48,641 nucleotides of DNA from NCBI GenBank assembly GCA_038244455.1, contig JBBRTK010000002.1, positions 1 through 48,641 of the forward strand, given 5' to 3'. The notes under the pieces are model-generated. The model made no database searches, was not told the DNA's origin, and saw nothing but the letters and a program-made list of their open reading frames with translations. Source of the DNA: Actinomycetota bacterium (GTDB taxonomy: Bacteria; Actinomycetota; UBA4738; HRBIN12). Both the position numbers and the translations under genes were made by a program. This document shows positions 4,657 through 42,886 of this stretch, in pieces. Within the stretch, counting starts at the first letter, position 1. Every line of letters begins with the position of its first letter.

Positions 4657-4663
4657 AACTCCC

Positions 4664-12971: not shown

Positions 12972-13273
12972 CCGCGCAACTCCCGGGAATCATCGACGTT
13001 CACGGACAGGCGTCGTCGGTACACCGCGACGATGATGGCGAGCCCGACCACGACCTCGGCGGCCGCCACGATCATCGAGAAGAAGGCCAATACCTGCCCA
13101 CGCAGGTCGCCGTGCATCCTCGCGAACGCCACCAACGCCAGGTTCACAGCGTTCAGCTGAAGTTCGACCGACATGAAGATGACGAGGGCGTTCTTGCGAA
13201 GGAGCACGCCGGCGGTCCCGACACCGAAGAGGATCCCCGAGAGCACGAGGAAGAACGCGATGGGGGTCCTCAT
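12968..13273 (-). CDS. nuoK: NADH-quinone oxidoreductase subunit K
   Basis: The last 101 aa of the 252-aa track ORF ([13 protein letters not shown]...[13 protein letters not shown]...). ATG 13273 overlaps the nuoJ stop. Confidence 0.92.
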
Positions 13274-23664: not shown

Positions 23665-23684
23665 CTTGTGAAAACTTTCACAAG
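23665..23684. promoter_or_regulatory. Rex operator (ROP): CTTGTGAAAACTTTCACAAG, 9-bp perfect inverted arms
   Basis: Matches the TTGTGAA-N4-TTCACAA Rex consensus exactly. It lies 9-15 nt upstream of the first gene of the nuo unit, and the rex gene is present in the window. TAnnnT -10-like hexamers (TAGCCT, TAGGCT on the minus strand) lie just upstream. Confidence 0.75.
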
Positions 23685-28565: not shown

Positions 28566-29386
28566 GAGACGTCCGCCGGGATCTTCGCGACCCGGGGCCA
28601 CGGTAGGGACGCCCCCTCCTCACGTTCCTCCCGGGCGTACCAGCGGAAGAAGACGGTAGCGATGAATCCCCAGAGGATGAGGCCACCGACGAGCTTCATG
28701 ATGAGCCCGGCGATGAGTTGGTCACGGAGCGGTCCGATCCCCCAGATGCGCGGGAACGTCGCGTAGATCGCGTAAAGCGGATGCATGCCGAACGTCAGGA
28801 ACGATGCCGGGATGGTCGGAGCCAGCGATTGGAAGAACAGGTACATCATCTGGCCGGGCGCGGCGAGCCCTGGGTACTCCGGCAGGGTCGACATCACCGG
28901 CCACCACATGATCAACGCCGAGGCCACCAGCAGCACGTGCAGCCCGAAGTGCAGCCAGTGCGACTGCACCGACGCCGTCACGATGGCGGGCCAATGCGTG
29001 AACAGCAGCACGCCGTTGAACAGCAGGAGCGCAAGCACGGGGCGGGTCATGAACCTGAAGAACGCACCGATGGCCTTCGGGCGCAGGAACCGGCGGAGCA
29101 TCCACGCGGGCACCCCGGCGATGAGCAACGGCGGCGCAACCAGCGTGAACAGCATGTGCTGGACCATGTGCATGAAGTAGAGGTAGCGCTCGGCCAGATC
29201 GTGGATCGGATAGTCGGCGCCGATCCAGAGCACGACCATGCCGGTCAGGAAGAGCTTCTTGCGCCGGGCGGGCGTGATCTCACCGGTGCCGGCCGCATGA
29301 CTGCGGCACGCGATCAGGTACGCGGCCATGATTGAACCGAAGAGGAGCCACACGTCCACGTGAGGATGCCAAGCGGGCAGCGTCAT
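28562..29386 (-). CDS. ctaG: Cytochrome c oxidase assembly factor CtaG (Bacillus caa3-type, polytopic)
   Basis: 274-aa polytopic ORF with MHMVQHMLFTLVAPPLL and the WP..S pattern typical of the caa3_CtaG family. It lies directly after ctaF. Confidence 0.8.
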   Translation of the reverse strand: MTLPAWHPHVDVWLLFGSIMAAYLIACRSHAAGTGEITPARRKKLFLTGMVVLWIGADYPIHDLAERYLYFMHMVQHMLFTLVAPPLLIAGVPAWMLRRFLRPKAIGAFFRFMTRPVLALLLFNGVLLFTHWPAIVTASVQSHWLHFGLHVLLVASALIMWWPVMSTLPEYPGLAAPGQMMYLFFQSLAPTIPASFLTFGMHPLYAIYATFPRIWGIGPLRDQLIAGLIMKLVGGLILWGFIATVFFRWYAREEREEGASLPWPRVAKIPADVS

Positions 29387-30380: not shown

Positions 30381-32267
30381 CTACTCCGCCACCGAGGGCT
30401 CGAGAGCCCAGCCGATGAACCCGACGAGGATGATGAACGCCGCGGCGCCCACCAGGTACCAGCTGTACAGGATGCCGTAGCCGAGCAGCGGCAGCCCGGT
30501 CGCCGCCACGAGCGGCCAGAAGGACGGGCTCGGAAGGTGGATCGCGTGCCCGGCCGCCGCTTCGTGCCCAGGGTCGTGTTCCGGCGCGGCGCCCGCCGGG
30601 ATGCGGATCAGTTCGCCGGTTCGTTCGTCGGTGGTGTATTTGCGGTGCCAGAACTCGTCCAGCGAATGGACCTCGGGCACCTCGTCGAAGTTGTGGACGG
30701 GCGGCGGGCAGGACGTCATCCACTCGATGGTCCGCGCATCCCACGGGTCCTCGTTCTCCAGCCCCTTCGGGTGCCGCGCTGTCTTCAGGACGTTCACGAT
30801 GAACACGAGCATAGCGATGGCGATGGTGAACGATCCGACCGATGCCACCTGGTTGTAGAAGGTGAGCCCGAGCGTCGCCGGGTACGTATAGGTCCGCCGG
30901 ATCATGCCTTGCAGTCCGAGGATGTGCATCGGCCCGAACGTCAGGTTCATCCCTACAACGAAGAGCCAGAAATGCACCTTTCCCAGGCGTTCGGACAGCA
31001 TCTTGCCGAAGACCTTGGGCCACCAGTAGTACATGCCCGCGAACAGCCCGAAGACGGCGCCGCCGAAGAGCACGTAGTGGAAGTGGGCGACGATGTAGTA
31101 CGTGTCGGTCTGCTGGTAGTCCGCGGGAACGATGGAGTGCGTCACGCCGGAAAGCCCGCCGATCACGAACATCGCGATCCCGCCCACTGCGAACAACATC
31201 GGCGAATCGAAATGCAGATCGCCCTGGGCCATCGTGGCCATCCAGTTGAAGATCTTCACGCCGGTGGGCACGGCGATGATCGCCGTCGAGACACCGAACG
31301 CCGTGTTCGCCACCGGGCCGAGACCCGCCGCGAACATGTGGTGCGCCCACACCCCGAACCCGATGAACCCGATCGCGATCCCGCTGAACGCCACGAACTG
31401 ATATCCGAACAACGGCTTGCGGCTGAACACCGGCAGGATCTCGCTGAAGATCCCGAACGCAGGCAAGACGAGGATGTAGACCTCGGGATGGCCGAAGAGC
31501 CAGAACAGGTGCTGCCAGAGGATCGGATCACCCCCCGCCGTCGGGTCGAAGAAGTGCGTCCCGAACCGCCGGTCGAAGAGCATCTCGACCAGGGCCACGG
31601 TGATGATCGGAAGGCTGAAGGCCAGCAGGAACTGCACGACCAGGCCCATCCAGATGAAGATGGGCATACGGAACAGGGTCATCCCCTTGGCGCGCATGTT
31701 GATGATGGTGACGGCCAGGTTCACCGCGCCCACCGACGACGCGATCCCCGTGATGAGCAGCCCGAGCGTGTAGAACGTCATCCCGATGGACGGGTCGGTG
31801 GTGGAGTTCGGCGGGTAGCCGAACCACCCGCCGTTGGGCGCGCCGCCCAGGAACCAGCTGGAGTAGAGGAACAACCCACCCAGGATGAACGCCCAGAAAC
31901 TGAAGGCGTTCAGCCGGGGGAACGCGACGTCGCGCGCGCCGATCATCAGCGGGATCAGGTAGTTGAAGAACGCCGCGCTCATCGGCATGACGAACAGGAA
32001 CACCATGGTCAGGCCGTGCATCGTGAAGATCTGGTCGTACTGCGCCGCCGTGACCAAGTGCTGATCCGGGCCCGCCAGCTGCGAGCGGATGATCAGCGCC
32101 TCGAGCCCGCCGATGAGGAAGAAAATGAACGAGGACCCGCCGTACATCAACCCGATCTTCTTGTGGTCCACCGTGGTGAACCAACTCCAGAAGCCGGTGG
32201 TCGCCGACGGCCGGCGGATGAGGCCCCTGCCGCCTTCCTCGATCACGCTGGCCATCGGTCCTTCCAT
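30381..32267 (-). CDS. ctaD: Cytochrome c oxidase subunit I (long 14-TM form)
   Basis: 628 aa with FTTVDHKKIGLMY, WFFGHPEVYILVLP-like (LFWLFGHPEVYILVLPAFG) and HFHYVLFGG. It has a C-terminal two-helix extension like Bacillus CtaD. Confidence 0.97.
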   Translation of the reverse strand: MEGPMASVIEEGGRGLIRRPSATTGFWSWFTTVDHKKIGLMYGGSSFIFFLIGGLEALIIRSQLAGPDQHLVTAAQYDQIFTMHGLTMVFLFVMPMSAAFFNYLIPLMIGARDVAFPRLNAFSFWAFILGGLFLYSSWFLGGAPNGGWFGYPPNSTTDPSIGMTFYTLGLLITGIASSVGAVNLAVTIINMRAKGMTLFRMPIFIWMGLVVQFLLAFSLPIITVALVEMLFDRRFGTHFFDPTAGGDPILWQHLFWLFGHPEVYILVLPAFGIFSEILPVFSRKPLFGYQFVAFSGIAIGFIGFGVWAHHMFAAGLGPVANTAFGVSTAIIAVPTGVKIFNWMATMAQGDLHFDSPMLFAVGGIAMFVIGGLSGVTHSIVPADYQQTDTYYIVAHFHYVLFGGAVFGLFAGMYYWWPKVFGKMLSERLGKVHFWLFVVGMNLTFGPMHILGLQGMIRRTYTYPATLGLTFYNQVASVGSFTIAIAMLVFIVNVLKTARHPKGLENEDPWDARTIEWMTSCPPPVHNFDEVPEVHSLDEFWHRKYTTDERTGELIRIPAGAAPEHDPGHEAAAGHAIHLPSPSFWPLVAATGLPLLGYGILYSWYLVGAAAFIILVGFIGWALEPSVAE

Positions 32268-33409
32268 CAGTTCAGGCTCTTCAGGTAGGCGACGAGCGCG
32301 TTGATCTCGTCGGGGCTCAGATGGTAGTTGGGCATCTTCGACCCGAGCTTGACCGCGTTGGGGTCTCGGAGCCAGGCCTGCAACGCCGCGGTGTCGCTGG
32401 TATTCCAGTCACACCCCGCGAAGCAGGAATGCGTGTAGGCGGCGAAGTGCGTGAGGTTCGGCCCGGCGGTGCCCGCGGCGGTGGTGCCGCCGATGGAGTG
32501 ACAGGCGATGCAGCTTCCGCGCCCCCCGCTCAGCGGATTCAGGAAGGTGTCCATGCCCTGCGTCGCCAAGGGGTCGGTCGGTGTGTCGCTCGGGAGCTTC
32601 TGGTTCGCGACCCACGCGGTCCAATCGATCGGACTGAGCGCGACCACGCGGACCTTCATCTTGCCGTGCTGGAGACCGCAGAACTCGGCGCACTGGCCGT
32701 AGTAGGTCCCGGGGGTGTCCGCCTGGATCAGGATGTGGTTGGTCCGGCCGGGAACCACGTCCTGCTTGCCGGCCAGCTCGGGTATCCAGAACGAGTGGAT
32801 GACCTGGAAGTCGGGGTTCGGCCCGGCGACGCCTCCGTTCAACGCGCCGCCTTCGGAGGCGAGCGAGAGGTAAACCGTGCGGCCCGCCGGGATGACCATC
32901 ACGTCGGCCGTGCTGATGGGCGCGTTCGTGCCGTAGCCGGTCTTCATGTCGGCGTCCGTGTAAGAGAAGCCCCACCACCACTGGTGACCTTGGACGGTGA
33001 TGTTGAGCGCGTTGGCGGGCGGGGGCTTGGCCAGGCTCCATATGGTGGCGATCGTCGGCACCATGACGACCGCCAGGATGAGCGCCGGCGCGATGGTCCA
33101 GGCGATCTCCAAGCGGGTGTTGCCGTGTGTCTGCGGCGGGGTTCGGTTCACGCCCTTGCGATGCCGCCACTTCAGGGCGATGAAGACGATCCCGCCCTCC
33201 ACCAGCACGAACACGGCGGCTGCGATCCAGAAGACGGGGACGAACAGACTCTTGATCTGCTGCGCGTACGGGCCTTGGGCCTTCAGGGTGTCCTGCGTGG
33301 CGTGGGGCGCACACGACGCCAACCCGAGTGCGAGCGCCACGAGCCCAAGGGCCCAGAGCACCTTCTTCCGCACGATCCCCCTGCCTCCCCGACGCACGTT
33401 CACGGGCAC
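32267..33409 (-). CDS. ctaC: Cytochrome c oxidase subunit II with C-terminal cytochrome c domain (caa3-type)
   Basis: Has the CuA motif HSFWIPELAGK...CAEFCGLQHGKM and the haem c motif CIACH plus a downstream Met. The lipobox is LGLASC. The start is probably GTG 33373 (VRKKVLW..., GGAGG upstream) rather than 33409. Confidence 0.93.
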   Translation of the reverse strand: MPVNVRRGGRGIVRKKVLWALGLVALALGLASCAPHATQDTLKAQGPYAQQIKSLFVPVFWIAAAVFVLVEGGIVFIALKWRHRKGVNRTPPQTHGNTRLEIAWTIAPALILAVVMVPTIATIWSLAKPPPANALNITVQGHQWWWGFSYTDADMKTGYGTNAPISTADVMVIPAGRTVYLSLASEGGALNGGVAGPNPDFQVIHSFWIPELAGKQDVVPGRTNHILIQADTPGTYYGQCAEFCGLQHGKMKVRVVALSPIDWTAWVANQKLPSDTPTDPLATQGMDTFLNPLSGGRGSCIACHSIGGTTAAGTAGPNLTHFAAYTHSCFAGCDWNTSDTAALQAWLRDPNAVKLGSKMPNYHLSPDEINALVAYLKSLN

Positions 33410-33470
33410 ACACCCGTCCGGAACGCGCGAACTGTACCACTGGTCCGCCGCGCCCCCAGGCTCCTAGCAG

Positions 33471-34457
33471 TCACTTCGCGTACGAATGCAGGCCGGCGAT
33501 CCACAGGTTCACCGCGTAGTAGGTCACGAACAGCGACACGAACCCGACCAGCGCCACCACGGCTGCGCGAGAACCCTTCCATCCGGCGGTCGCCCGGGCG
33601 TGCAGGTAGCCGGCGAAGATGGTCCACGTGATGAACGACCACGTCTCCTTCGGGTCCCAGCCCCAGTAGCGTCCCCAGGCCTGCTGGGCCCAGATGGCTC
33701 CGCAGATCACCCCGAACGTCCAGACGGGGAAGCCGAACGAGATCATCCGGTAGGCCATCTTGTCCAGCGCGGCCGCCGAGGGGAACCGTCCCCGCGCCAG
33801 GGCGCGCTCGGCCACAGCACCGTCGCCGTCGGCCACCAGGTCGTGAGGAGACGCGTCGCCCGCCGGGGCGCCGGGCAGGACGCCGGTGTCCACCGACCCG
33901 CCCATGATGGGCGGGGGGACCTGCGAGGAGAGCCTCCGAAGCTGCCGGCGTTCGGAACGGTCCTTGAACAGGAACGCGATGGTGATGATGCAGCCGACAC
34001 CCAGGAGGCTGGACGCCGTGATCATCGCGGTCACATGGATCTGACGCCAGTAGGAGTTGAGCGAGGGAAGGAGCGCCCCCGGACCGACGTAGAAGAACGA
34101 GGCCCCCATCGCCAAGGTGAACACGGCGAACATGAGCACGAACCCACCCAACGTCTTCGATCCGAGCTGGCGTTCGACCAGGAGGAGGTAGGCGACCACC
34201 ACCAGGAACGACAGCGCCATCGAGAACTCGTACATGTTGCCCCAGGGGATCCGGGCGTCGGCGATGCCCCGGGCCACGATCGCCGTCAGGCCGCCGGCCG
34301 CGCCGAACGCAGTGACGGCGGTGGCAACCTTGCCCATCCAGGTCTTGGCGAACGCCAGGAACGCCCAATACGCGAGCATCCCGGCGATGTAGGCGAACAG
34401 CGCCGCCGTGAACGCGTCCTTGGCCACTCGGGCCCACTGCAACTGGTTCGGGGTCAT
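33471..34457 (-). CDS. resC: Cytochrome c biogenesis protein, CcsA/ResC family (system II)
   Basis: The C-terminal 328 aa of the 534-aa track ORF. It has the Trp-rich WAQQAWGRYWGWDPKETW motif. ATG 34457 overlaps the resB stop. Confidence 0.9.
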   Translation of the reverse strand: MTPNQLQWARVAKDAFTAALFAYIAGMLAYWAFLAFAKTWMGKVATAVTAFGAAGGLTAIVARGIADARIPWGNMYEFSMALSFLVVVAYLLLVERQLGSKTLGGFVLMFAVFTLAMGASFFYVGPGALLPSLNSYWRQIHVTAMITASSLLGVGCIITIAFLFKDRSERRQLRRLSSQVPPPIMGGSVDTGVLPGAPAGDASPHDLVADGDGAVAERALARGRFPSAAALDKMAYRMISFGFPVWTFGVICGAIWAQQAWGRYWGWDPKETWSFITWTIFAGYLHARATAGWKGSRAAVVALVGFVSLFVTYYAVNLWIAGLHSYAK

Positions 34458-36040
34458 GGATTCGCCGCTTCCTTCCCTGGAACCTCTCCGCCACCGGCCC
34501 GCGTGAGTGCCGTCACCAGCCGGGCGAACTCGTCCTCGAACTGCGCCTTGCGCTGGAGAGCGAAGCCCCCGATCTGCACCAACGAACCGGTTCCCGCGGG
34601 CTGCACCCGCACCCAGACCTTGCGCCGGGCCGTGTAGAGGGCCGGCAGCAAACCGAGCACGATGAGGATAGCCGCGAAGAGCACGATGGACACCCCCCGG
34701 TCTCGGCTGACCTGCAGCACCGAATACTGCCGAACCCCTGGGAACGTGATCGTGAGCCGCGTGCCGTAGTCGATCTTCCCCGTCTTGGGGTCGGGCGTGA
34801 GCACATCTCCCGTCCGCAGGTCCACCGTTTGGCCGGGGAACATGATCGTGCTCTGAAGCTGCTGGAGCCCGGAGGTATCCAGCAGGGTGTTCGTGGCCGG
34901 GTCGAAGATCCTGCCCTGGTAGGTGGTGAAGCGGAGCACGGGCTTGTGCAGGATCGGCATCTGGACCGGCTGCCCGGTGACCTGTGACTGGAAGTAGGCG
35001 TCGCCGTCGGGCCAGAACTCCAGCGAGACCCCGATGTTGGGGGTCTGGTTCAGGAGCTTCTCCGTGCCGTTCCACGGGAGCGCGAGCTGCGGGACCCCGT
35101 CGGGCGGCAGCTGCTGGCCCATGGCCACCGGCCCGCCCGCGACCATCCGGCCGCTCTGACGGATCTGTACCTCGGGCGCCCAGCCGAACCCGTACTGGAA
35201 GATGTCCATGCCCTGGAAGTGCGCCGGGTGGTTCACCCGGATGTCCGCGGTCTGGAGTACGCGGCCCTGCGGGTCCAGGAGCTGCACCTTGGAGAGGAAG
35301 TCCATCGGGATGCCGGTGCTCCGGTAGCTATCGGTGAAGGACTGGAGGTGGATGCCGATCCCGCTGAAGTTCTCGGTGAAGAACCGGCCGGTTCGGACCT
35401 GGCCGTTGTAGTTGGGACGTGCGTCCACCCACGTCTGGCCCTCGATGATCGTGGCGTGCCCCACGTAGCCGGTCCCCTTCCCGACCGCGACGCCGAGCAG
35501 CAGGATCACGAACGCCCAGTGGAAGAGCAGGCTCCCGATCTCCCGGGCGATCCCCTTCTCGGCGGCGACCTGTGTTTCCCCTGCCGCCGTTCGGAACGCC
35601 TTGCGGGACAGCACCCGGCGTGAGGCGGCCAGCACCATGGTGGGCTCAGCGCCGACGTGCACCTCCCGGTAGAGCGGGAAGGCGTCGATCTCGCGTGCTT
35701 GGATCGGCTTCTGGCGCGCGCTCCGGATGGCCGCCCTGGTGCGGGGGATCAAACAGGCGAACAAGGACACGAACAACAGCGTCGTGATCAGCGTGAACCA
35801 CCACGAGCCGAAGACGTTGAAGAACTCGGCCTTCTTGTAGAAGAGCCCGACGACCGGGTGATCGATCATGAACTGCGCCACGCGCTCGGGGGAGTTCATC
35901 TCCTGAGGGATGAGGGAACCCACCACGGATGCCAGCGCGAGCAACAACAGGAGGATGAGCGCGGTTCGCATGGAGCGCAGCGACCGCCAGGCGAACGCGG
36001 CCGAACGGCGAAGGGTGAGACGCGAGGGCGCTACGGACAT
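34454..36040 (-). CDS. resB: Cytochrome c biogenesis protein ResB/Ccs1 (system II)
   Basis: 528 aa with an N-terminal LRSMRTALILLLLLALASVVGSLIPQ, a large extracytoplasmic domain and a C-terminal TM helix. It is paired with resC. Confidence 0.88.
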   Translation of the reverse strand: MSVAPSRLTLRRSAAFAWRSLRSMRTALILLLLLALASVVGSLIPQEMNSPERVAQFMIDHPVVGLFYKKAEFFNVFGSWWFTLITTLLFVSLFACLIPRTRAAIRSARQKPIQAREIDAFPLYREVHVGAEPTMVLAASRRVLSRKAFRTAAGETQVAAEKGIAREIGSLLFHWAFVILLLGVAVGKGTGYVGHATIIEGQTWVDARPNYNGQVRTGRFFTENFSGIGIHLQSFTDSYRSTGIPMDFLSKVQLLDPQGRVLQTADIRVNHPAHFQGMDIFQYGFGWAPEVQIRQSGRMVAGGPVAMGQQLPPDGVPQLALPWNGTEKLLNQTPNIGVSLEFWPDGDAYFQSQVTGQPVQMPILHKPVLRFTTYQGRIFDPATNTLLDTSGLQQLQSTIMFPGQTVDLRTGDVLTPDPKTGKIDYGTRLTITFPGVRQYSVLQVSRDRGVSIVLFAAILIVLGLLPALYTARRKVWVRVQPAGTGSLVQIGGFALQRKAQFEDEFARLVTALTRAGGGEVPGKEAANP

Positions 36041-36090
36041 GGCGGCCCGCTCATCCTAGGGGCTCCACGCGAGAACGGGCGGCCGGCAGC

Positions 36091-36825
36091 TCACAGACCC
36101 GGGACGAAGCGCTGAAGCGGCGCGAACCAGAGGGTGAACTGCCCCGTCACCAGGAGCAGCCCGATCGCGATCAAGAGGGCGCCGGAGACGCCGCCGATCC
36201 ACCGGTAGTTGCGCTTGATCCAGCCGTAGGCCCCCATGAAGCGTTGCACCCCAAGGCCGATGAGGAGGAACGGGACTCCCAGCCCCAGGGAGTAGAGCGT
36301 GAGGAGCAGAACGGACCGAGGCACCCCTCCGTTGCGCGAAAGGGCGATGATGGCGCCAAGCACCGGCCCGATGCACGGCGTCCATCCCGCGGCGAACGCC
36401 ATCCCCAGCGCCAGGGCCCCCACCCGGCCCGGCCGGACCTTCTCCAAGAACGGGCGGCGTTCCCGGTAGAGCCCCAACCCGCCAACCCGGAGCGCGTAGG
36501 CCACCATAAGCAGCCCGACCACCACCACGATCCCTCCGGAGATCCGCTGCCCGGCGGTCCCGCGGAGCACCGGGATAAGGCTCGCCGACACCCCGAGGGC
36601 CACGAACACAACCCCGAACCCGCAGATGAAGAGCAGGATCGGCGCCACCCGCCGGTCCTCGTCCTCCACGGCTCTCCCGCCGGCGATGAACGAGAGGTAC
36701 CCGGGCACCAGCGGCCAGACGCACGGCGAGGCGAACGACAGGGTCCCCGCCAGGAACGCCAGCAAGGGCGCCCACCACGAGCCCAGGCCGCCCGCGGCGT
36801 CGAAGGCGAGGAGAGGAGTGGTCAC
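36091..36825 (-). CDS. ccdA: Cytochrome c biogenesis thiol-reductant transporter CcdA (DsbD-like)
   Basis: 244-aa polytopic ORF with SFASPCVWPLVPGYL and GWTPCIGPVLGAI, the two conserved Cys motifs. Confidence 0.9.
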   Translation of the reverse strand: MTTPLLAFDAAGGLGSWWAPLLAFLAGTLSFASPCVWPLVPGYLSFIAGGRAVEDEDRRVAPILLFICGFGVVFVALGVSASLIPVLRGTAGQRISGGIVVVVGLLMVAYALRVGGLGLYRERRPFLEKVRPGRVGALALGMAFAAGWTPCIGPVLGAIIALSRNGGVPRSVLLLTLYSLGLGVPFLLIGLGVQRFMGAYGWIKRNYRWIGGVSGALLIAIGLLLVTGQFTLWFAPLQRFVPGL

Positions 36826-36950: not shown

Positions 36951-37343
36951 ATGAGCGTGGAGTCTGCGAACACGAGCACATCGAAGTCCCTGAAGGGCCG
37001 CGTTGAGGCGTTCCTCAGAGACTTCGAATGGACGTGGACCACTGCGGTGCTCTTCTCCTTCGGGATCCTGCTCGCACTCGTGATCGGTGTGTGCGTGATC
37101 CCGTCGTTCTGGATCTACTACGCCAACACGAACCTCCTCTGGAACCAGCCCCGGCACTTCCACCTGCTCGTCGTCACGTGGGATGCCACGGCGGTGTGGA
37201 TGGGGCTGATCCGGGACGCCATCGCCATGGGTGTCAGCACCGGTCCGATCATCACGATCCTTGTCGGTGCGTCCATCATGCAGAACCGGCGCCGCAAGCT
37301 ACGGGGTCAGACCGACTCTCGCCCCGCCGGCGGGTACCGATAA
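36951..37343 (+). CDS. Hypothetical small membrane protein (130 aa, 2-3 TM), first gene of the b6-type operon
   Basis: GC3-rich frame with an SD upstream and hydrophobic segments AVLFSFGILLALVIGVCVIPSFWIY and STGPIITILVGASIM. I recognised no family. Confidence 0.7.
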   Translation: MSVESANTSTSKSLKGRVEAFLRDFEWTWTTAVLFSFGILLALVIGVCVIPSFWIYYANTNLLWNQPRHFHLLVVTWDATAVWMGLIRDAIAMGVSTGPIITILVGASIMQNRRRKLRGQTDSRPAGGYR

Positions 37344-37352: not shown

Positions 37353-37766
37353 ATGCCCTTCACGAAGACCGAGGTCGACATCCACGATGACTACGTCATC
37401 GAGGCCGTCGATCCGGCGTGGCTCGCGCAGGGTGTGAAATCGCCGAAGCACCTCATGCTGGATCCCGACAACTGCATCCTCTGCCGGGCGTGCGAGGACG
37501 TGTGCCCGTGGAACTGCATCCTCATGATGTCGCCGGAGATCGTCATCGGCGCGGCCGAGGACGCCGTGGGCGACGAGGTTAGGTACGCCACAGCGGTTTT
37601 CGTGGTTGACGACAATGCGTGCACTCGGTGTTCCGTGTGCGTGGACCGGTGTCCCACGGACACGCTGTACTATGCCCGACTGCCCGAGGACTCCGGCGCC
37701 AAGCGCACCATGGCCGCCGTCCCGGTGTCACAGGCCGCCGAGCCGATGGAAGAGGGGAAGGGTTGA
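37353..37766 (+). CDS. 2x[4Fe-4S] dicluster ferredoxin-like protein (cytoplasmic)
   Basis: Contains CILCRACEDVCP and CTRCSVCVDRCP, with no TM helix or signal peptide. AGGAG SD lies upstream. Its stop overlaps the next gene's start. Confidence 0.88.
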   Translation: MPFTKTEVDIHDDYVIEAVDPAWLAQGVKSPKHLMLDPDNCILCRACEDVCPWNCILMMSPEIVIGAAEDAVGDEVRYATAVFVVDDNACTRCSVCVDRCPTDTLYYARLPEDSGAKRTMAAVPVSQAAEPMEEGKG

Positions 37767-38533
37767 AGCCGAAGCTGCCGTCGCCGGGGGAACTCGGCGA
37801 CCGACTCCGCGATTCCGAGGTTTGGAAGTCCATCTTCCGGCCGGGTTCGGTGTTCCGCAAGGGGTACAAGGACACCTCCCGCGACCGTGCCCTGGCTACG
37901 ATGAACAACGTCCTGTATCACCTTCACCCCACCAAGGTGAAGCGCCACGGATTGAAGCTGACGTACACGTTCTGCCTGGGTGGACTCTCGTTCTTCCTGT
38001 TCATCGTGCTCACGGTGACGGGGATCTTCCTGATGTTCTTCTACCGGCCCATGGCCGACCTGGGAGGCGCGCAGGCCTACGCCGATATGCAGAGCATCCG
38101 AACCACGGTCTTCTTCGGGGACTGGATGCGGAACATGCACCGTTGGGGGGCCCACCTCATGGTGTTCTCGGTGACCCTGCACATGGCGCGCGTGTTCTAC
38201 ACGGGGGCGTACAAGCCTCCGCGGGAGTTCAACTGGGTGGTCGGCGTGATCCTTCTGTTCCTGACGCTCGGTCTTTCGTTCACCGGGTACCTGCTTCCCT
38301 GGGACCAGCTCTCCATCTGGGCCGTCACGGTGGGGACCTCGCTCGGGGGCTACGCCCCATTCATCGCCAAGCAGGCGAACTTCCTCCTACTGGGCGGCGC
38401 GGTGGTCGGCCCGCAAACCCTGCTCCGTTGGTATGTGCTCCACGTCCTTGCCCTTCCGTTCGTGCTCGTCCTGTTCCTGGCGGTCCACTTCTGGCGGATC
38501 CGCAAGGACGGCGGCATCTCAGGACCGCTCTAA
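37763..38533 (+). CDS. Cytochrome b6-like protein (N-terminal 4-helix half of cytochrome b; petB/qcrB-like)
   Basis: Contains TFCLGG, RNMHRWGAHLMVFSVTLH (H-x13-H), LHVLALPFVLVLFLAVH (H-x14-H) and PWDQLSIWA. It ends IRKDGGISGPL, like plastid/cyanobacterial b6. I propose a TTG start at 37763 after GAAGAGGGGAAGG. The first 48 aa of the track ORF are out-of-frame ferredoxin. Confidence 0.92.
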   Translation: MKPKLPSPGELGDRLRDSEVWKSIFRPGSVFRKGYKDTSRDRALATMNNVLYHLHPTKVKRHGLKLTYTFCLGGLSFFLFIVLTVTGIFLMFFYRPMADLGGAQAYADMQSIRTTVFFGDWMRNMHRWGAHLMVFSVTLHMARVFYTGAYKPPREFNWVVGVILLFLTLGLSFTGYLLPWDQLSIWAVTVGTSLGGYAPFIAKQANFLLLGGAVVGPQTLLRWYVLHVLALPFVLVLFLAVHFWRIRKDGGISGPL

Positions 38534-38542: not shown

Positions 38543-39394
38543 ATGAGCTGGGAAGAAGCCAACAAGGATATGGCGGTCTACCAGGCCACCTTGGACGCGC
38601 AGCTCGCGGCCGGGGTGGACCGGAAGATCGCCGAGGGCCGCGCGCGGTCCAAGGCGCTGCGGGCCTGGCGCGAGGCACACCCCGAAGAGGCTGCTGCCGA
38701 GGCTGCCGCTTCCGCCAAGCCGGCCGCACCTGCCGCCACGCCGGCCGCCGCCGCAGCCACGACCGCTGCTCCCGCTTCCGCGGCACCTGTCCCCGCGGCG
38801 GGCACCCCCCTGCCGATGACCGCCGCAGCCGCCTCCGCGACCAAACGCGAGGCGCCCCTGCCCACGGGCGGCGTGCCCACCGCGGCCAGGAAGGGTGGGG
38901 AGGACAAGCACCGCCTGCTGGCACTGGTCCCGCCCGAGGGCATCCAGCGCGTCGAACGCGAGCAGGGCGACCGCGTGAACACCTGGCCGCACCTGCTCAT
39001 CGAAGAGTTCGTGGCGATGTTCGTGCTGCTGGCGGGGATGGCCATCTTCTCCACGTTCATCAACGCCCCACTGCGCGAACTGGCCAACCCCAACCTCACG
39101 CCGAACCCGTCGAAGGCGCCCTGGTACTTCCTCGGTTTGCAGGAACTGCTGCGCTACTTCCACCCGATGGTCGCCGGGATCATGATCCCGACATTCATCC
39201 TGGTCGGGCTCGCCGCGGTTCCCTACGTGGACCGCAACCCCAGCAACCGACCCGGCGATCGCAAGATCGCCCTCACGCTGTTCACGCTCCTCTTCATGTT
39301 CGGGGCGACCCTGACCATCATCGGATCGTTCTTCCGCGGCCCCGGATATAACTGGGTGTGGCCGTGGACCCAAGGGGTGTTCTTCGAACTATGA
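38543..39394 (+). CDS. Subunit IV-like protein (C-terminal 3-helix half of cytochrome b; petD-like) with ~110-aa extra N-terminal Ala/Pro-rich extension
   Basis: Contains NTWPHLLIEEF..., ANPNLTPNPSKAPWYFLGLQELLRYF (at the PEWY position) and three TM helices. GGAG SD lies upstream. Confidence 0.88.
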   Translation: MSWEEANKDMAVYQATLDAQLAAGVDRKIAEGRARSKALRAWREAHPEEAAAEAAASAKPAAPAATPAAAAATTAAPASAAPVPAAGTPLPMTAAAASATKREAPLPTGGVPTAARKGGEDKHRLLALVPPEGIQRVEREQGDRVNTWPHLLIEEFVAMFVLLAGMAIFSTFINAPLRELANPNLTPNPSKAPWYFLGLQELLRYFHPMVAGIMIPTFILVGLAAVPYVDRNPSNRPGDRKIALTLFTLLFMFGATLTIIGSFFRGPGYNWVWPWTQGVFFEL

Positions 39395-40107
39395 CCGCCA
39401 CCATCTCCACCGGTTCCGTCATCGCGATCCTGGCCTTCGTGGTGCTGGACGTATTCGCGGTTGTCTTCGGGCTCTCGTTCGCGCGGGCGCACAAGGCGCA
39501 GCGGGCGGCCGCCTCGGGACTTCCGGCAGCCCCACCCTCCACCGCCAAGCCGACCTCGCGCCGCGACTTCTTCCGCGGGTCCCTCCTCATCTCCATGGGA
39601 GTGTTCCTGGCCGAGTTCGGCGGGGCCTCGCTCGCGTTCCTGTGGCCCAGCCTCACGGGCGGGTTCGGATCGAAGATCAACGCTGGAGCCGTGGGCGACA
39701 TCAAGAACCAGTTCCAGAACACGGGCGGGCCGGTCTACGTGGGCGCGGGCCGGTTCTATGTCGTGCCCTATCTGGGTAAGCCCAGCAACGGGGTCGACTA
39801 CGCGGCGCTCGGCGCAACCACGGAAGGTGTCATGGCGCTTTACCAGCGTTGCGTCCACCTGGGCTGTCGCGTGCCGTTCTGCGGCACATCCAAATGGTTC
39901 GAATGCCCATGTCACGGATCGAAGTACAACTATGCAGGTGAGTACAAGTTCGGCCCCGCCCCCACGGGCATGGAACGGTTCGCGATCAAGGTCGACAGCT
40001 CCGGGAACCTGATCGTGGACACCTCGACCAAGTTCGGTGGACCGCCTCGCGGCACCGACACGATCAACGAGCCGCCGCAGGGTCCTTTCTGCGTGGCGCC
40101 GGGATAA
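39391..40107 (+). CDS. Rieske [2Fe-2S] iron-sulfur protein
   Basis: Has CVHLGC and CPCHGS boxes, a twin-arginine motif SRRDFFRGS, and one extra N-terminal TM helix. ATG 39391 overlaps the upstream stop (ATGA). Confidence 0.92.
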   Translation: MTATISTGSVIAILAFVVLDVFAVVFGLSFARAHKAQRAAASGLPAAPPSTAKPTSRRDFFRGSLLISMGVFLAEFGGASLAFLWPSLTGGFGSKINAGAVGDIKNQFQNTGGPVYVGAGRFYVVPYLGKPSNGVDYAALGATTEGVMALYQRCVHLGCRVPFCGTSKWFECPCHGSKYNYAGEYKFGPAPTGMERFAIKVDSSGNLIVDTSTKFGGPPRGTDTINEPPQGPFCVAPG

Positions 40108-40119: not shown

Positions 40120-41055
40120 ATGCTGGCACTCACCACTAGCGCGGGCGTCATCCTCTTGGTCCTGGGCGCGGTCTTCGTGGTCGCCGCGGGCGGCGGACTT
40201 CTCCTGCGTTCGCGCACGCGCCGCGCGGGGTTGGAGATCCCTCGGGCGATGCGCCCCGGCCCTTCGGATCAGGCCCTGGAAACCCCGCTGCTGCAGAAGC
40301 TCCAGGGATGGGGCGTGCTGCTCACCGCGTTCTTCGTGCTGTGGATCCCGTTCAACTGGGTCACCGAGCCCGGCATAAACCTCGCGCAGGACCAGAACCT
40401 GAAGACGGCGGCTATCTCCCGGGGCCAGCAGGCGGTCCTGCCCTACTCCGAGGAGAACCAGCTGGGTATCGGCTGCACCCGCTGCCACGGCCCCGAGCTC
40501 AAGGGTGGAACCGTCATCCAGATCGGCGTCGACCCGGTCACCGGCGCCGTGATCCCCGGCCGCCCCGCGAACCTGTCCACCGTCTGCGGGGGACCGTTCA
40601 CCGGGCACCCACAGATCTGGGATGTCTCCGACATCCAAGGGACGCTCGTGAACGGACGGGCCAGCCTGGGCATGCCGTCGTGGAGCATCCGGGAGGCCGG
40701 GGCGCTCGACGACCAGCAGATCAACGACCTCGTGAACTACCTGGTCTGGTACAGCTCGAAGAACGTGCCGTTCAGCGAGAACATCTGCCTCAACCCCGAC
40801 GCCCAGAAGGCCGCGGTGCTCGTCTGCACCTCGGCCGTGCAGTCGGCCCCGACCCTCTACTCCTATCAGCACGTCATCAAGCCACTCATCGACGCCGCGG
40901 CTGCCGCCGCCGCGAAGGCGTCCGCGGCGCCGAGCGCACCTTCGGCTTCGGCTGCTGCTTCGCCGAGTGCACCGGCCACAGCGGCGAGCGGCGCACCGTC
41001 GGCGACGCCAACGCTCTCGCCGATAGCGGCACTGCCCCCGGGGGTGAGCTGCTGA
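40120..41055 (+). CDS. Membrane-anchored monohaem cytochrome c
   Basis: A single CTRCH motif (40474-40488) with a candidate Met ligand in LGMPSW. It has two N-terminal TM helices, an Ala/Ser/Pro-rich C-terminal tail, and GGGAGGAG SD upstream. Confidence 0.85.
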   Translation: MLALTTSAGVILLVLGAVFVVAAGGGLLLRSRTRRAGLEIPRAMRPGPSDQALETPLLQKLQGWGVLLTAFFVLWIPFNWVTEPGINLAQDQNLKTAAISRGQQAVLPYSEENQLGIGCTRCHGPELKGGTVIQIGVDPVTGAVIPGRPANLSTVCGGPFTGHPQIWDVSDIQGTLVNGRASLGMPSWSIREAGALDDQQINDLVNYLVWYSSKNVPFSENICLNPDAQKAAVLVCTSAVQSAPTLYSYQHVIKPLIDAAAAAAAKASAAPSAPSASAAASPSAPATAASGAPSATPTLSPIAALPPGVSC

Positions 41056-41819
41056 TGCACGTCAGCACGTGTCTCGGATTCCACGTCGAGTGCGGCACGA
41101 TGTTCAAGGGGATCGGCGTCACCGTAATGGCGTTCATCCTGTTCATCGGTTCTGTCTACCTGTTGCTCTCGGCGATCCTTGGCCGGTGGATGGGCTACCT
41201 CCTGGTCGTCGTAGCGTTCGCCGGCTGGATGACCGTGCTCTCGGTCATGTGGCTTACCGGGTTCTTCATCAGCCAAGGGCTCCCAGCGAACACTCCCCAC
41301 AACACCGGACCGCAGGGCCAGCTGGCCGAGTGGGTGCCGCTGAACGCCGGTGCCCAAGCCCCGATCGATCTGGCCGCGAACTACGCCGCCTTCTCCTCCT
41401 ACCCGGCCAAGCCGTGGGTCGAAGCCACCGACCCCGCCGACCCACAGGTCCAGGCGGCGGAGAGCGTCGCGCAGGCATTCCTGGCCAAGGAGGCGAACGC
41501 CGCGCACGGCATCTACGACGCGTTCGCTATCGATGCCATCACCACATCGCAGTTCATGGTCGACCACATCGCGTTCACGACCGCCGCCGACGGGAAGACC
41601 CAACTGGCCATCGTCGAGGCGCACTACGCGAGCGGTGGTCCCAGGACCATCGTGGCCATGTACTTCGACCAGGGCAGCGTTCAGCGATACGGACTCTACT
41701 TCCTCATCTTCTCGTTGCTGCTGCTGGGCACGCATCTCCCCCTCCTGGACCGGGCGGAGAAGCGTCGCAAGGCATTCCTGACCGGGGGCGCCGCCCCCGC
41801 CTGGTACGGACCCGCGTAG
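41055..41819 (+). CDS. Hypothetical membrane protein (2 N-terminal TM, ~150-aa extracytoplasmic domain, 1 C-terminal TM)
   Basis: This is the real part of the 503-aa track ORF, in a GC3-rich frame. ATG 41055 overlaps the cytochrome c stop (TGATG). An alternative ATG lies at 41100 (MFKGIGV...). I recognised no family. Confidence 0.7.
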   Translation: MHVSTCLGFHVECGTMFKGIGVTVMAFILFIGSVYLLLSAILGRWMGYLLVVVAFAGWMTVLSVMWLTGFFISQGLPANTPHNTGPQGQLAEWVPLNAGAQAPIDLAANYAAFSSYPAKPWVEATDPADPQVQAAESVAQAFLAKEANAAHGIYDAFAIDAITTSQFMVDHIAFTTAADGKTQLAIVEAHYASGGPRTIVAMYFDQGSVQRYGLYFLIFSLLLLGTHLPLLDRAEKRRKAFLTGGAAPAWYGPA

Positions 41820-41954: not shown

Positions 41955-42650
41955 CTAGGGCCTCGGCTTCGACGGGACGTCCGCAACCGCGCGGCCCCGC
42001 CGCTTCACCTCGGCAAGCGTTGCCTTCCGCTGTTCGTAGAAGGCCAGGATCTGGAGTTCGATGGCCAGGTCCACCTTCCGCACCGAGACACCGGGCGGAA
42101 CGGTGATGACGGCCGGAGCGAAGTTGAGGATCGAATGGATCCCCGCCGCCACCATCGTGTCGACCACCTCTTGCACAGCCGCTGCCGGGGTCGCGATCAC
42201 GCCGATGGCCACGTCGTTCGCCGACACGAGGGCAGGCAGGGCCGAGACCGGCAGGATCTCGAGCCCCCCGACCTTCTGGCCCACCTTCGCCGGATCCGCG
42301 TCCACGAGTCCCGCCACCCGGAATCCGCGTTCGCCGAAGCCCTTGTAGTTGGCCAGCGCCTGCCCCAGGTTCCCGATGCCGGCGATGACGATCGCCCAGT
42401 GCTGCGTGAGCCCCAGTTCCCGGCGGATCTGGTGGATGAGGTAGGCCGCGTCGTAACCGACCCCGCGCGTGCCGTACGAGCCCAGGTAGGACAGGTCCTT
42501 ACGGACCTTCGCGGAGTTGACGCCGGCCGCCTCGGCCAGATCATCGGAACTGACCATGGTGGTTCCGGTCTCGGCGATGTCGACCAACGCCCGCAGGTAC
42601 ACCGGGAGCCTGGCAACCGTGGCCTCGGGGATGGAACGGTCCCTCATCAT
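41955..42650 (-). CDS. rex: Redox-sensing transcriptional repressor Rex
   Basis: The C-terminal 231 aa of the 297-aa track ORF (MMRDRSIPEATVARLPVYLRAL..., KVRKDLSYLGSYGTRGVGY, Rossmann IAGIGNLGQAL). ATG 42650 overlaps the upstream stop. Confidence 0.93.
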   Translation of the reverse strand: MMRDRSIPEATVARLPVYLRALVDIAETGTTMVSSDDLAEAAGVNSAKVRKDLSYLGSYGTRGVGYDAAYLIHQIRRELGLTQHWAIVIAGIGNLGQALANYKGFGERGFRVAGLVDADPAKVGQKVGGLEILPVSALPALVSANDVAIGVIATPAAAVQEVVDTMVAAGIHSILNFAPAVITVPPGVSVRKVDLAIELQILAFYEQRKATLAEVKRRGRAVADVPSKPRP

Positions 42651-42886
42651 CCCGACCCGCTCACGAGTTCGCGGAGCCGCTCGGCGTCCACCTCGATCTC
42701 GAACGCCTCTACGCCGTCGATCAGGACCACCGGGATCCGCATCCCGTACTCGAGTTCCAGGGCGTCTTCGGTGGAAACATCGACCTCGACCAGGTCGAAC
42801 GGCGTCCGGTCCCGCTGGGCCAGGAGCACGCCCCGAGCCACGTCGCACAGGTGACAGCCGGGCCTTGAGAAGAGGGTGACCTGCAC
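42647..42886 (-). CDS. Glutaredoxin-like small protein (DUF836-type, CxxC)
   Basis: 79 aa with VTLFSRPGCHLCD. It is coupled to rex. Confidence 0.8.
   Translation of the reverse strand: MQVTLFSRPGCHLCDVARGVLLAQRDRTPFDLVEVDVSTEDALELEYGMRIPVVLIDGVEAFEIEVDAERLRELVSGSG

Follow-up and report, generated by a model that had tools for sequence, protein, structure and literature searches.

The role of haem ci has been debated since 2003 without a clean system, and with it whether b6-type complexes accept or donate electrons at the cytoplasmic side, the two poles of the debate being the ferredoxin:quinone reductase route of cyclic flow and an anammox-style bifurcation. The actinobacterial stretch analysed here (48,641 nucleotides, referred to as the window) raises this question in a concrete form, with a gene for a small ferredoxin-like protein directly preceding the cytochrome b6 gene of a Rieske/b6 operon. 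Is this ferredoxin a bound subunit of the complex or a soluble protein that is merely co-transcribed with it, and, if it is bound, in which direction would it conduct electrons?

Genetic organisation of the locus

The ferredoxin-like gene is the second of seven tightly packed genes, which in the order small two-TM protein, ferredoxin, b6, subunit IV, Rieske protein, monohaem cytochrome c and membrane protein make up the operon:

36951-37343, + strand: small membrane protein, 130 aa, with two or more hydrophobic segments and a basic tail at the C-terminus
37353-37766, + strand: ferredoxin-like protein, 137 aa, soluble, of the 2x[4Fe-4S] type
37763-38533, + strand: cytochrome b6, 256 aa, TTG start at 37763 (Pfam Cytochrome_B, E = 3.3e-41)
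38543-39394, + strand: subunit IV, 283 aa (Pfam Cytochrom_B_C), APWY Qo motif at residue 192
39358-40107, + strand: Rieske [2Fe-2S] protein (Pfam Rieske), signature CPCHGSKY (S-Y)
40120-41055, + strand: membrane-anchored monohaem c-type cytochrome (Pfam Cytochrom_C), single CTRCH (CxxCH) motif and N-terminal TM segment
41100-41819, + strand: conserved membrane protein, 239 aa, matching no Pfam family

A gap of 9 nt separates the small membrane-protein gene from the ATG of the ferredoxin, and the good Shine–Dalgarno sequence preceding this ATG (AAGGAG) overlaps the upstream stop codon. At the following junction, the original prediction had the ferredoxin TGA overlapping a TTG start of b6. In the window the two codons do overlap (TGA 37764-37766, in-frame TTG 37763-37765), but this arrangement is not conserved, the 4-nt overlap being present in only 9 of 89 loci and replaced elsewhere by a gap of 11 to 73 nt. 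The TTG at 37763 can be taken as the real b6 start because it matches the GTG or TTG codon that opens the sequence V/L-K-L-K-P-P-S-P in 89 related loci, and the sequence before it is unconserved. Tight linkage between ferredoxin and b6 is general, while the literal stop/start overlap is not. Further downstream, the true start of the Rieske protein is probably the ATG at 39391, which overlaps the subunit IV stop codon as ATGA. A consensus terminator scan returned two matches, against a mean of 2.5 in shuffled sequence, with one site inside the b6 gene (38019-38032).

The operon is flanked by a convergent gene for a redox-sensing repressor and by a divergent respiratory context (32267-36825), whose arrangement CcdA-ResB-CcsA/ResC-CoxII is conserved in most related loci:

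41955-42848, - strand: Rex-type redox-sensing repressor (Pfam Put_DNA-bind_N and CoA_binding)
36091-36825, - strand: CcdA (Pfam)
34454-36040, - strand: ResB (Pfam)
33471-34502, - strand: CcsA/ResC (Pfam)
32267-33409, - strand: CoxII fused to cytochrome c (Pfam)

The Rex gene is kept in 51 of 78 genomes (median identity 74%) and also in the deep lineage L086, so that it qualifies as a conserved neighbour, not necessarily as a part of the b6 system. Control of the operon by Rex was rejected, as no Rex operator precedes it at up to 3 mismatches; the sole Rex operator in the window is a perfect palindrome at 23666-23683, in front of the nuo cluster.

A predicted dicluster ferredoxin outside the curated families

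The protein starts with a conserved N-terminal extension of 35 aa and ends in a conserved C-terminal tail; between its two cysteine motifs lies an acidic insert, variable and about 20 aa long. The first motif reads C41-ILC-RAC-EDV-C51-P52 and the second C90-TRC-SVC-VDR-C100-P101, with 37 residues from P52 to C90, which bears out the two canonical CxxCxxCxxxCP motifs and the spacer of about 35-40 aa originally proposed. Both quartets with their prolines (C41/44/47/51-P and C90/93/96/100-P) are invariant among 99 aligned family members, and the invariant positions in the alignments include Y14, C41, C44, C47, C51-P52-W53, C55, F83, D86, C90-T-R-C93, C96 and C100-P-T. The Pfam Fer4 model matches with E = 9e-13 and 47.9 bits (cut-off 21.1), placing the protein in the Fer4 domain clan, and Fer4_7 (44.4 bits, threshold 27), Fer4_10 (42.4 bits, threshold 25.5) and Fer4_9 also exceed their gathering thresholds; this domain match is far above chance level. 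Homologues number more than 1000 at E ≤ 1e-3, the best 120 all having E < 1e-67.

The expectation that neither a signal peptide nor a transmembrane helix would be found was likewise confirmed: a Kyte–Doolittle scan detected no TM segment, and the N-terminus MPFTKTEVDIHDDY contains neither a twin-arginine nor a hydrophobic signal. The net charge is -13 at this locus and ranges from -9 to -13 across loci. From its sequence we infer that the protein is cytoplasmic and binds two [4Fe-4S] clusters.

Members of the family presently carry the annotations 'NuoI', 'PreA' or '4Fe-4S binding protein'. The database-name identities NuoI, FdxA, PreA and HycF were dropped on the basis of curated cut-offs and gene context. 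Specifically, the NuoI/TYKY models score far too low (TIGR01971, 40.8 bits against a cut-off of 113.05; NF004546, 35.3 against 260), and the gene sits between the small membrane-protein gene and b6, not between nuoH and nuoJ; separate nuo clusters exist in the window, where a Fer4 protein at 4150-4656 adjoins nuoH. The 7Fe ferredoxin FdxA was rejected at 33-36 bits against cut-offs of 125-135 (NF045480, NF045490) and by the presence of all four cysteines in both motifs, the FdxA-type [3Fe-4S] motif being without the second cysteine. A PsaC-type identity was also discarded, since no PsaC chain appeared among the PDB matches at E ≤ 0.01, nor with the family profile at 1e-6. The original prediction would have been refuted had the cysteine motifs turned out to be those of some unrelated enzyme subunit family already known; NuoI, which matches best among the curated models, lies below its cut-off, and by these scores the ferredoxin falls outside every curated family.

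In a PDB profile search, solved ferredoxin-type chains matched only residues ~33-112; the first 30 residues, themselves conserved, and the C-terminal tail had no counterpart. By analogy, these unmatched termini may recall the way in which PsaC differs from soluble ferredoxins. AlphaFold2 monomer models reached a pLDDT of 45 with a 28-sequence alignment and of 62 with a 99-sequence alignment, and a Foldseek search of the PDB with the low-pLDDT model gave no significant match, the best being PscB (7z6q_B) at E = 1.2. We found no solved structure of this ferredoxin and no paper describing it, an earlier mention being possible, most likely in Dibrova et al. 2013.

The neighbouring genes: a b6f/b6c-type complex with an APWY Qo motif

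The predicted haem ligands of the b6 protein are H126/H140 and H227/H242, and the haem-ci motif FCLGG (CxGG) lies at residues 70-74, CxGG being present in 167 of 167 b6 sequences. Its best PDB relatives are the plant and cyanobacterial b6 proteins (E about 1e-44). By these features it would be a cytochrome b of the b6f/b6c type, split from subunit IV and with a predicted haem ci. In addition, the protein begins with a basic extension of about 45 aa facing the cytoplasm (net charge +5 to +8), in which the motif W.SIFRPGS.F.KGY.D..R.R is invariant across four deep lineages. Subunit IV has an N-terminal extension of its own, 140 aa long, Ala/Pro-rich, of low complexity, poorly conserved and missing in L088 and L090; the C-terminal tail of the cytochrome c is Ala/Ser/Pro-rich.

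All 128 loci carry APWY as the Qo motif and 108 of 110 have the S-Y signature in the Rieske protein. A menaquinone pool is expected in the phylum Actinomycetota. According to the rule quoted in PMC4122944, S-Y indicates a high-potential cluster, predicted to lie above 260 mV. With APWY and a Mid+/high-potential Rieske signature, the b6/subunit IV pair has the sequence features that define the APWY clade. Assignment to the ExtP/ExtQ equivalogs (NF040969/NF040970), a b-type cytochrome of the selenite/tellurite reduction operon, was rejected, b6 narrowly missing the cut-off (287.5 bits against 290) and subunit IV falling well short of it (55.7 against 150). The ExtP model begins at b6 residue 47 and the ExtQ model at subunit IV residue 149, so that the N-terminal extensions lie outside both models.

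Linkage and conservation across genomes

The association was examined from both sides, in samplings that together cover about 160 related actinobacterial loci. Starting from the ferredoxin, b6 lies directly downstream in 88 of 89 loci; starting from b6, the ferredoxin lies directly upstream in 68 of 69. The exceptions are an orphan ferredoxin paralogue (L091) and a b6 gene without an adjacent ferredoxin (L149). Homologues are therefore not randomly distributed with respect to Rieske/b operons; a random distribution had been named as an outcome that would speak against the original prediction. Among 80 GTDB species genomes, the order small membrane protein, ferredoxin, b6, subunit IV, Rieske, cytochrome c is kept wherever the contig is long enough, and it is also kept in five deep lineages in which ferredoxin identity is only 39-54%. 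All taxon-named matches are Actinomycetota, except one labelled Methylomirabilales; among the closest records, one bears the label Solirubrobacterales and the others Actinomycetes or Actinomycetota bacterium.

Over 78 genomes, median identity is 81% for the ferredoxin, 89% for b6, 87% for the subunit IV core, 59% for the Rieske protein and 56% for the cytochrome c. A conservation close to that of b6 fits what a tightly packed core subunit would be expected to show. Apparent fusions of the small membrane protein to the ferredoxin or of the ferredoxin to b6 (P0123, P0126, P0136, P0148 and others) all proved to be frameshifted assembly read-throughs, and no natural ferredoxin fusion was found among the library proteins.

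The small membrane protein, overlooked in the earlier reading of the locus, is linked as tightly as the ferredoxin, being encoded directly upstream of it in 78 of 78 species-level genomes (median identity 48%). Its hydropathic segments span residues 27-59 and 90-110, and its basic tail has a net charge of +3 to +6. No significant Pfam or NCBIfam match was found, and no PDB match with a profile. Weak homologues (24-38% identity) occupy the same position in the deep lineages L083, L086 and L088 and share the motifs TWTxAVL...IPS and RDAI. We regard this protein as a candidate accessory subunit or anchor. The product of the seventh gene is found in 53 of 78 genomes, namely those extending far enough, and with 26-29% identity in L086, L088 and L092.

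Comparison with known systems

The complex shares with Firmicute b6c (QcrABC) and with b6f the split b6 and subunit IV, the four histidines, CxGG, a Rieske protein and a c-type cytochrome as acceptor. Unlike the operon described here, b6c and b6f operons encode no Fe-S protein of the cytoplasmic side, ferredoxin or FNR being at most a transient partner of b6f (PMC5600118). Further differences are the APWY Qo motif in place of PEWY or PDWY, an S-Y Rieske protein in a phylum where menaquinone is expected, the extra b6 extension of ~45 aa, and a separate monohaem cytochrome c in place of cytochrome f or of a fused subunit IV–cytochrome c. With the APWY clade, which includes Geobacter ExtP/ExtQ, the locus has APWY, CxGG, the split b and the Mid+/high-potential Rieske signature in common. 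Kao & Hunte 2014 (PMC4122944) listed Rubrobacter, Conexibacter, Patulibacter and Ilumatobacter as having a split b of the APWY or PEWY type and called the whole APWY clade, which also holds planctomycete sequences, uncharacterised; a ferredoxin gene in the actinobacterial operons is not mentioned there. The 'PDWF-FeS' clade of the same study differs in that 4Fe-4S and MvhD domains are fused to cytochrome b.

A precedent, still hypothetical, for a cytoplasmic-side Fe-S protein is offered by the anammox complexes Kuste4569-4574 and Kustd1480-1485 (PMC12954380; subfamily G in PMC5600118), which likewise combine a b6-like b, a subunit IV-like protein and a high-potential Rieske protein with an Fe-S protein that is encoded in the operon and placed at the cytoplasmic face, and for which a junction of Qi-side haems to an Fe-S chain has been conceived. 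In that case, however, the Fe-S protein, an NAD(P)/FAD oxidoreductase, is large and has about four clusters, and the cytochromes are hexa- or octahaem, whereas the present operon encodes a 15-kDa dicluster protein, a small membrane protein and a cytochrome c with one haem, and has a caa3 oxidase as its neighbour. An anammox-type complex was rejected for this locus, as none of the seven genes encodes an NAD(P)/FAD-binding domain and the cytochrome c has a single CxxCH. The anammox mechanism itself rests on models and not on an isolated enzyme (PMC12954380). As to the statement, made with the original prediction, that ferredoxin is a diffusible partner and not an operon-encoded b6f subunit, its first half stands for b6f, where the partner is at most transient, but the anammox operons, although hypothetical in function, do provide an operon-encoded precedent (PMC12954380, PMC5600118). 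When the histidine ligand of the AF3-predicted extra b haem of the anammox complexes is compared with the conserved YHLHP...KRH found here, the C-terminal arginine spacing matches ambiguously.

PsaC, PscB and NuoI (TYKY) are likewise small 2x[4Fe-4S] proteins with extended termini and a stretch inserted between the two motifs, and the ferredoxin would work like them as a terminal or intermediate Fe-S relay. All three are permanently bound at the cytoplasmic or stromal face of a membrane complex, and in PsaC and NuoI the terminal extensions mediate permanent docking. In NarGHI, DsrMK, HdrDE and mycobacterial EtfD, too, a dihaem cytochrome b anchors the system, and its transmembrane haems exchange electrons both with menaquinone and with Fe-S proteins in the cytoplasm, EtfD showing that an inward route of this kind exists in Actinomycetota (PMC13083937). 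These systems differ in having a NarI-type b, neither a Rieske protein nor a Qo bifurcation site, and unrelated Fe-S proteins of the CCG or four-cluster type.

A probable bound subunit and the direction of electron flow

The gene and its motifs, the solubility of its product, operon membership, near-obligate two-way co-occurrence, the level of conservation, and the haem-ci and Qo motifs of the partner are established here. Physical attachment, the docking site and the electron path are what we infer from them, and we consider it probable that the ferredoxin is a bound subunit of the actinobacterial Rieske/b6 complex. It would be a dedicated, stoichiometric n-side subunit of a b6c-type menaquinol:cytochrome c oxidoreductase, together with the upstream small membrane protein. 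On the cytoplasmic face, the N-terminal extension of b6, which is specific to this lineage, and the tail of the small protein might together make up a basic surface onto which the acidic ferredoxin docks. The clusters of the ferredoxin would then lie within tunnelling distance of the haem bH/haem ci pair at the Qi pocket, and the complex would gain an Fe-S wire joining these haems with the cytoplasm. The b6-like conservation, the unique termini, the charge complementarity and the universal CxGG fit a fixed subunit on the cytoplasmic side, although charge and conservation are weak arguments when taken singly because small ferredoxins are generally acidic and well conserved.

For the direction of flow we tentatively favour the inward one, which is a guess; attachment and inward relay taken jointly have somewhat less than an even chance. 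Low-potential electrons from the cytoplasm would pass through the clusters to haem ci and on to menaquinone at Qi, possible donors being reduced soluble ferredoxin, flavodoxin or 2-oxoacid:ferredoxin oxidoreductases. The ferredoxin:quinone route that has long been suggested for b6f, in which haem ci has been put forward as the entry point of ferredoxin electrons (PMC5600118, citing Kurisu 2003 and Stroebel 2003), would here exist in hard-wired form. Haem ci of menaquinone-using Firmicutes lies at roughly -50 mV (PMC5600118), and inward flow would be downhill because typical [4Fe-4S] potentials are below that value. The cytoplasmic partner is only conjectural, as the operon contains no donor or acceptor enzyme gene.

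Outward flow from a bound subunit is equally conceivable as a mechanism because an S-Y Rieske protein and the expected menaquinone imply b haems of very low potential (PMC4122944; PMC12954380), yet as an account of this locus we judge it unlikely. After bifurcation at Qo, the low-potential electron would travel from bL to bH, ci, the clusters and a cytoplasmic acceptor (ferredoxin, flavodoxin or, indirectly, NAD(P)+), and the high-potential one to the S-Y Rieske protein and cytochrome c. The same mechanism, with its operon-encoded Fe-S precedent, has been proposed for the anammox Rieske/b complexes (PMC12954380, PMC5600118), and b6/subunit IV belong by their motifs to an APWY clade that includes planctomycete sequences (PMC4122944); by the argument of PMC12954380, S-Y (108/110) with menaquinone would set the b haems at ~-320 mV or lower, near [4Fe-4S] potentials. 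Set against this, the operon has no NAD(P)/FAD subunit, an electron moving to the cytoplasmic side opposes the membrane potential, and we estimate the energy available to reduce a -400 mV centre as about zero or negative with cytochrome c and caa3 oxidase as acceptor. Moreover, the hosts look like aerobic heterotrophs, with genes for NADH dehydrogenase and caa3 oxidase nearby and no obvious need for reverse flow, and the anammox mechanism is itself unproven. A bound subunit might also work with no external partner, its clusters buffering electrons at the cytoplasmic face or linking the monomers, for paired electron delivery to menaquinone at Qi or for draining over-reduced low-potential b haems, and so limiting the formation of semiquinone and reactive oxygen in an aerobic complex that uses menaquinone. 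This would agree with the missing partner enzyme, with a gene that looks housekeeping, since essentially all b6 operons of the clade contain it and its conservation resembles that of the catalytic core, and with the aid that haem ci is already thought to give to concerted two-electron quinone reduction (PMC5600118). We nonetheless hold it to be quite improbable: it is pure inference, a separate dicluster polypeptide acting as a mere buffer has no precedent in a Rieske/b complex, and the acidic insert, variable and probably exposed at the surface, looks more like an interaction surface, as do the conserved tails.

Operon membership does not prove association, and the ferredoxin could instead be a co-transcribed soluble protein, either a diffusible carrier kept for co-regulation or a maturation factor supplying reductant for haem ci attachment or for Rieske cluster assembly before Tat export. 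To our knowledge the actinobacterial machinery for haem ci attachment has not been described, which counts in favour of such a role, as do the absence of fusions, the b6 of L149 and the orphan paralogue of L091. On the other hand, Firmicute b6c has, as far as we know, haem ci and no such operon gene; assembly factors are seldom conserved like the catalytic core or set between translationally coupled structural genes; and the co-occurring cytoplasmic extension of b6 suggests a permanent docking surface. We give this explanation about the same low standing as outward flow. The least probable reading is that of a regulatory subunit that senses redox state or oxygen and, through the state of its clusters, tunes how active the complex is or how fast it is turned over. 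Fe-S clusters often act as sensors and the Rex gene is a conserved neighbour, but both motifs are invariant and of the canonical electron-transfer type, no DNA-binding or signalling domain is present, and the operon lacks the Rex operator sought above.

Implications for actinobacterial complex III

If the ferredoxin is indeed a fixed subunit, this would be a natural complex with its n-side redox partner permanently attached, in which the pathway through haem ci could be followed directly by EPR, kinetics and cryo-EM. Complex III would gain two or three subunits not recognised so far (the small two-TM protein, the ferredoxin and the seventh membrane protein) and would have to be redefined in entire classes of Actinomycetota that are common in soil and water. 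In its widest form, which we regard as possible but doubtful, this would mean that the housekeeping complex III of the large, environmentally abundant non-Actinomycetes classes of the phylum, among them Acidimicrobiia and a Solirubrobacterales-related lineage, is a seven-subunit b6c-type enzyme with haem ci hard-wired to a bound 2x[4Fe-4S] ferredoxin. Such an enzyme may have a third redox port, working in aerobes as a ferredoxin:menaquinone reductase or as a quinol-driven bifurcating ferredoxin reductase.

The ferredoxin and its operon

The ferredoxin gene stands second in a compact operon, whose members, together with the gene that follows them, are:

36951-37343, small membrane protein matching no family; 9 nt separate its end from the ferredoxin ATG, and its stop codon falls within the ferredoxin SD
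37353-37766, + strand, ferredoxin, 137 aa
37763-38533, cytochrome b6; H126/H140 and H227/H242, FCLGG haem-ci motif
38543-39394, subunit IV; APWY Qo motif, 140-aa Ala/Pro-rich N-terminal extension
39358-40107, Rieske protein, CPCHGSKY; probable ATG at 39391, overlapping the subunit IV stop as ATGA
40120-41055, monohaem cytochrome c, one CxxCH
41100-41819, membrane protein of 239 aa, seventh operon gene, no family match (Pfam)
41955-42848, convergent, Rex repressor gene, downstream of the operon

Specifically, the ferredoxin carries the motifs CILCRACEDVCP (C41-P52) and CTRCSVCVDRCP (C90-P101), separated by 37 residues, and matches Pfam Fer4 with E=9e-13, several dicluster models also scoring above their gathering thresholds. 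A hydropathy scan revealed no TM segment, and the N-terminus shows neither a signal nor a twin-arginine motif; coordinates, motifs, spacing and the missing TM segment and signal all agree with the soluble two-motif ferredoxin of the original prediction. Alignment of the ferredoxins shows no variation in the cluster motifs, in an additional Cys55 (CPWxC) or in parts of the N-terminal extension; the acidic insert that separates the two motifs varies.

In PDB sequence searches, solved chains (FwdF and MvhB polyferredoxin modules, the HdrA insert, RnfB and NdhI) matched only across residues ~33-112; judged from such comparisons, the termini are unique to the protein's own family. Literature searches of incomplete coverage turned up no account of this ferredoxin, and the PDB sequence searches no structure. 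The protein does not qualify as a member of the PsaC, PscB or NuoI families, and, judged by curated models, the cysteine motifs do not come from a known unrelated subunit family.

The original prediction had also placed the ferredoxin stop over the b6 start. In the window this overlap is real: the TGA (37764-37766) overlaps a TTG (37763-37765) that lies in the reading frame of cytochrome b. Across 89 related loci the homologous codon is GTG or TTG and opens a conserved V/L-KLKPPSP... peptide, preceded by unconserved sequence, and TTG 37763 is therefore the correct b6 start. The literal overlap is, however, kept in only 9 of the 89 loci, the others having a gap of 11-73 nt.

As regards the remaining operon products, the subunit IV extension (38543-38960, ~140 aa) contains a long linker of low complexity, rich in Ala and Pro; the extension shows little conservation (median 55%) and is missing in some lineages (loci L088 and L090). 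The cytochrome c ends in an Ala/Ser/Pro-rich tail (about 40870-41055). The seventh-gene membrane protein, whose gene follows that of the cytochrome c at most of the related loci and which retains 26-29% identity in deep lineages, may be a further unrecognised subunit or assembly factor.

Genomic surroundings

Divergent genes upstream of the operon encode CcdA, ResB, CcsA and a CoxII-cytochrome c fusion; farther upstream, the remaining genes of a caa3-type oxidase are clustered, and nuo genes occur in two sets. With these genes around the operon, the window is therefore a respiratory island; the G+C of the source bacterium is 67%.

The two complex I sets are separate, a partial one at 1378-6201 (NuoL-like, a NuoI-like Fer4 protein at 4150-4656, NuoH, NuoC-like) and a long one at 11076-22400 (nuoA, B, D, E, F, G, H, J, L and others), with a polyprenyl synthetase gene (7072-8079) between them. 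A perfect 18-bp Rex-operator palindrome, TTGTGAAAACTTTCACAA, lies at 23666-23683, just upstream of an FAD-binding gene (22402-23655, - strand) followed by nuoA/nuoB; it is the sole match in the window at <=3 mismatches, 0.33 being expected by chance. The rex gene itself adjoins the b6 operon, apart from this operator.

The single 615-aa ORF at 25115-26962 combines COX15/CtaA (haem A synthase) and UbiA/CtaB (haem O synthase) domains and looks like a fused CtaA-CtaB. A 355-aa oxidase-cluster protein (27534-28601) ends in a cupredoxin/plastocyanin-like domain, and the C-terminal region of CoxI (30381-32267, 628 aa) gives a sub-threshold match to PF12270, the actinobacterial oxidase subunit IV family (23.9 bits vs a cut-off of 26.9). 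Two minus-strand genes ~330 nt apart (46048-46938 and 47267-48088) match Pfam CLP1_P, a polynucleotide-kinase-like P-loop domain, and PF15698 'Phosphatase', an unusual pair in a bacterial genome.

Linkage of the ferredoxin to cytochrome b6

Close homologues of the ferredoxin number more than 1000. A scan with one genome per GTDB species gave 80 loci, all from uncultured Actinomycetota MAGs (one labelled Solirubrobacterales), and the order small membrane protein, ferredoxin, b6, subunit IV, Rieske, cytochrome c was found in 80/80, as far as contigs reach. An exhaustive HMMER search over 1.84 billion cluster representatives added more distant full-length relatives (37-52% identity) with an N-terminal DDY...VD..WL motif. 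The operon recurs at their loci, with a small membrane protein of weak homology encoded upstream, in Acidimicrobiales (L083), in two lineages with a Ccm haem-maturation system (L086, L088) and in two further lineages (L090, L092). Taxon-named matches were all Actinomycetota but one, labelled Candidatus Methylomirabilales.

Sampling was also reversed, by a metagenome scan seeded on b6: among the 69 loci with sufficient upstream sequence, 68 had the ferredoxin directly upstream. Co-occurrence, which the original prediction had named as a test, is borne out from both sides, and a gene for a soluble dicluster-type protein is near-obligately and tightly linked to haem-ci-type b6.

Two exceptions were noted. 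At L091:672-1085 lies an orphan paralogue of 137 aa, a singleton cluster with a degenerate first motif (CIQCGAGYGCVDICP), followed not by b6 but by a 511-aa protein without family match and pyruvate dehydrogenase E1. In the one b6-seeded locus lacking the ferredoxin (L149:3162-4247), an unrelated gene precedes a b6 that retains its N-terminal extension; a rearrangement or a chimeric assembly could explain this.

Conservation and the putative b6 partner surface

Median amino-acid identity between the window's proteins and their counterparts in 78 species-level genomes

b6: 89%
Subunit IV core: 87%
Ferredoxin: 81%
Rex: 74%
CoxII: 61%
Rieske: 59%
Cytochrome c: 56%
Small membrane protein: 48%

The complex motifs are nearly uniform: CxGG in 167/167 b6 sequences, APWY in 128/128 subunit IV sequences and the S-Y Rieske signature in 108/110. 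The N-terminal part of b6 is ~30 residues longer than in canonical b6, and the curated ExtP model, beginning at residue 47, leaves out its first ~45 residues. A cytoplasmic-side segment, W.SIFRPGS.F.KGY.D..R.R...VLYHLHP.KVKRH, is invariant in four deep lineages. Charges are +5 to +8 for the b6 extension, -9 to -13 for the ferredoxin and +3 to +6 for the tail of the small membrane protein.

Before helix A, on the cytoplasmic side of b6, VLYHLHPxKVKRH (residues 50-62, 37910-37948), with three His, is almost invariant in all related loci. In AF3 models of anammox complexes, a His of the b6 N-terminal region ligates an additional b haem lying at the dimer interface (PMC12954380); the His residues of the present segment may or may not be its equivalents.

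Proposed role of the ferredoxin

At its core the operon encodes a b6c-type complex belonging to the 'APWY clade', which Kao & Hunte noted in Rubrobacter, Conexibacter, Patulibacter and Ilumatobacter and termed uncharacterised, leaving the ferredoxin unmentioned (PMC4122944). Comparative genomics strongly supports a dedicated subunit, and the overall interpretation is partly supported: the ferredoxin is probably a bound subunit of the complex; less probably it acts outside the complex, in maturation or as a carrier that diffuses freely. Attached to the cytoplasmic face, it would bring its two [4Fe-4S] clusters into electronic contact with haems bH and ci and would serve as a permanently attached dicluster relay, comparable in function to PsaC, PscB or NuoI. 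The closest conceptual precedent is the pair of anammox Rieske/b complexes, with an operon-encoded cytoplasmic NAD(P) oxidoreductase bearing Fe-S clusters, supported by models only (PMC12954380, PMC5600118).

For the direction of electron flow, our leading though tentative choice, binding and relay taken jointly, is inward: ferredoxin-type donors would reduce the clusters, and electrons would pass through ci to menaquinone at Qi, which is downhill. Menaquinone is expected in the phylum Actinomycetota. The S-Y Rieske signature predicts a potential >260 mV (rule quoted in PMC4122944), and such a combination was the basis for inferring very low-potential b haems in anammox complexes (PMC12954380). 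Very low-potential b haems are therefore implied here as well, and anammox-style bifurcation with outward flow is for this reason kept as a candidate; we consider it unlikely, however: an NAD(P)/FAD subunit is missing from the operon and, with cytochrome c/caa3 as acceptor, the energy available looks marginal. That the clusters serve as a buffer without an external partner appears less probable still.

Inward flow, if true, would be an instance of the ferredoxin:quinone route that has been proposed for b6f (PMC5600118). The ferredoxin family is widespread and abundant and, if its role is confirmed, would offer a natural, tractable system for studying electron transfer via haem ci on the cytoplasmic side.
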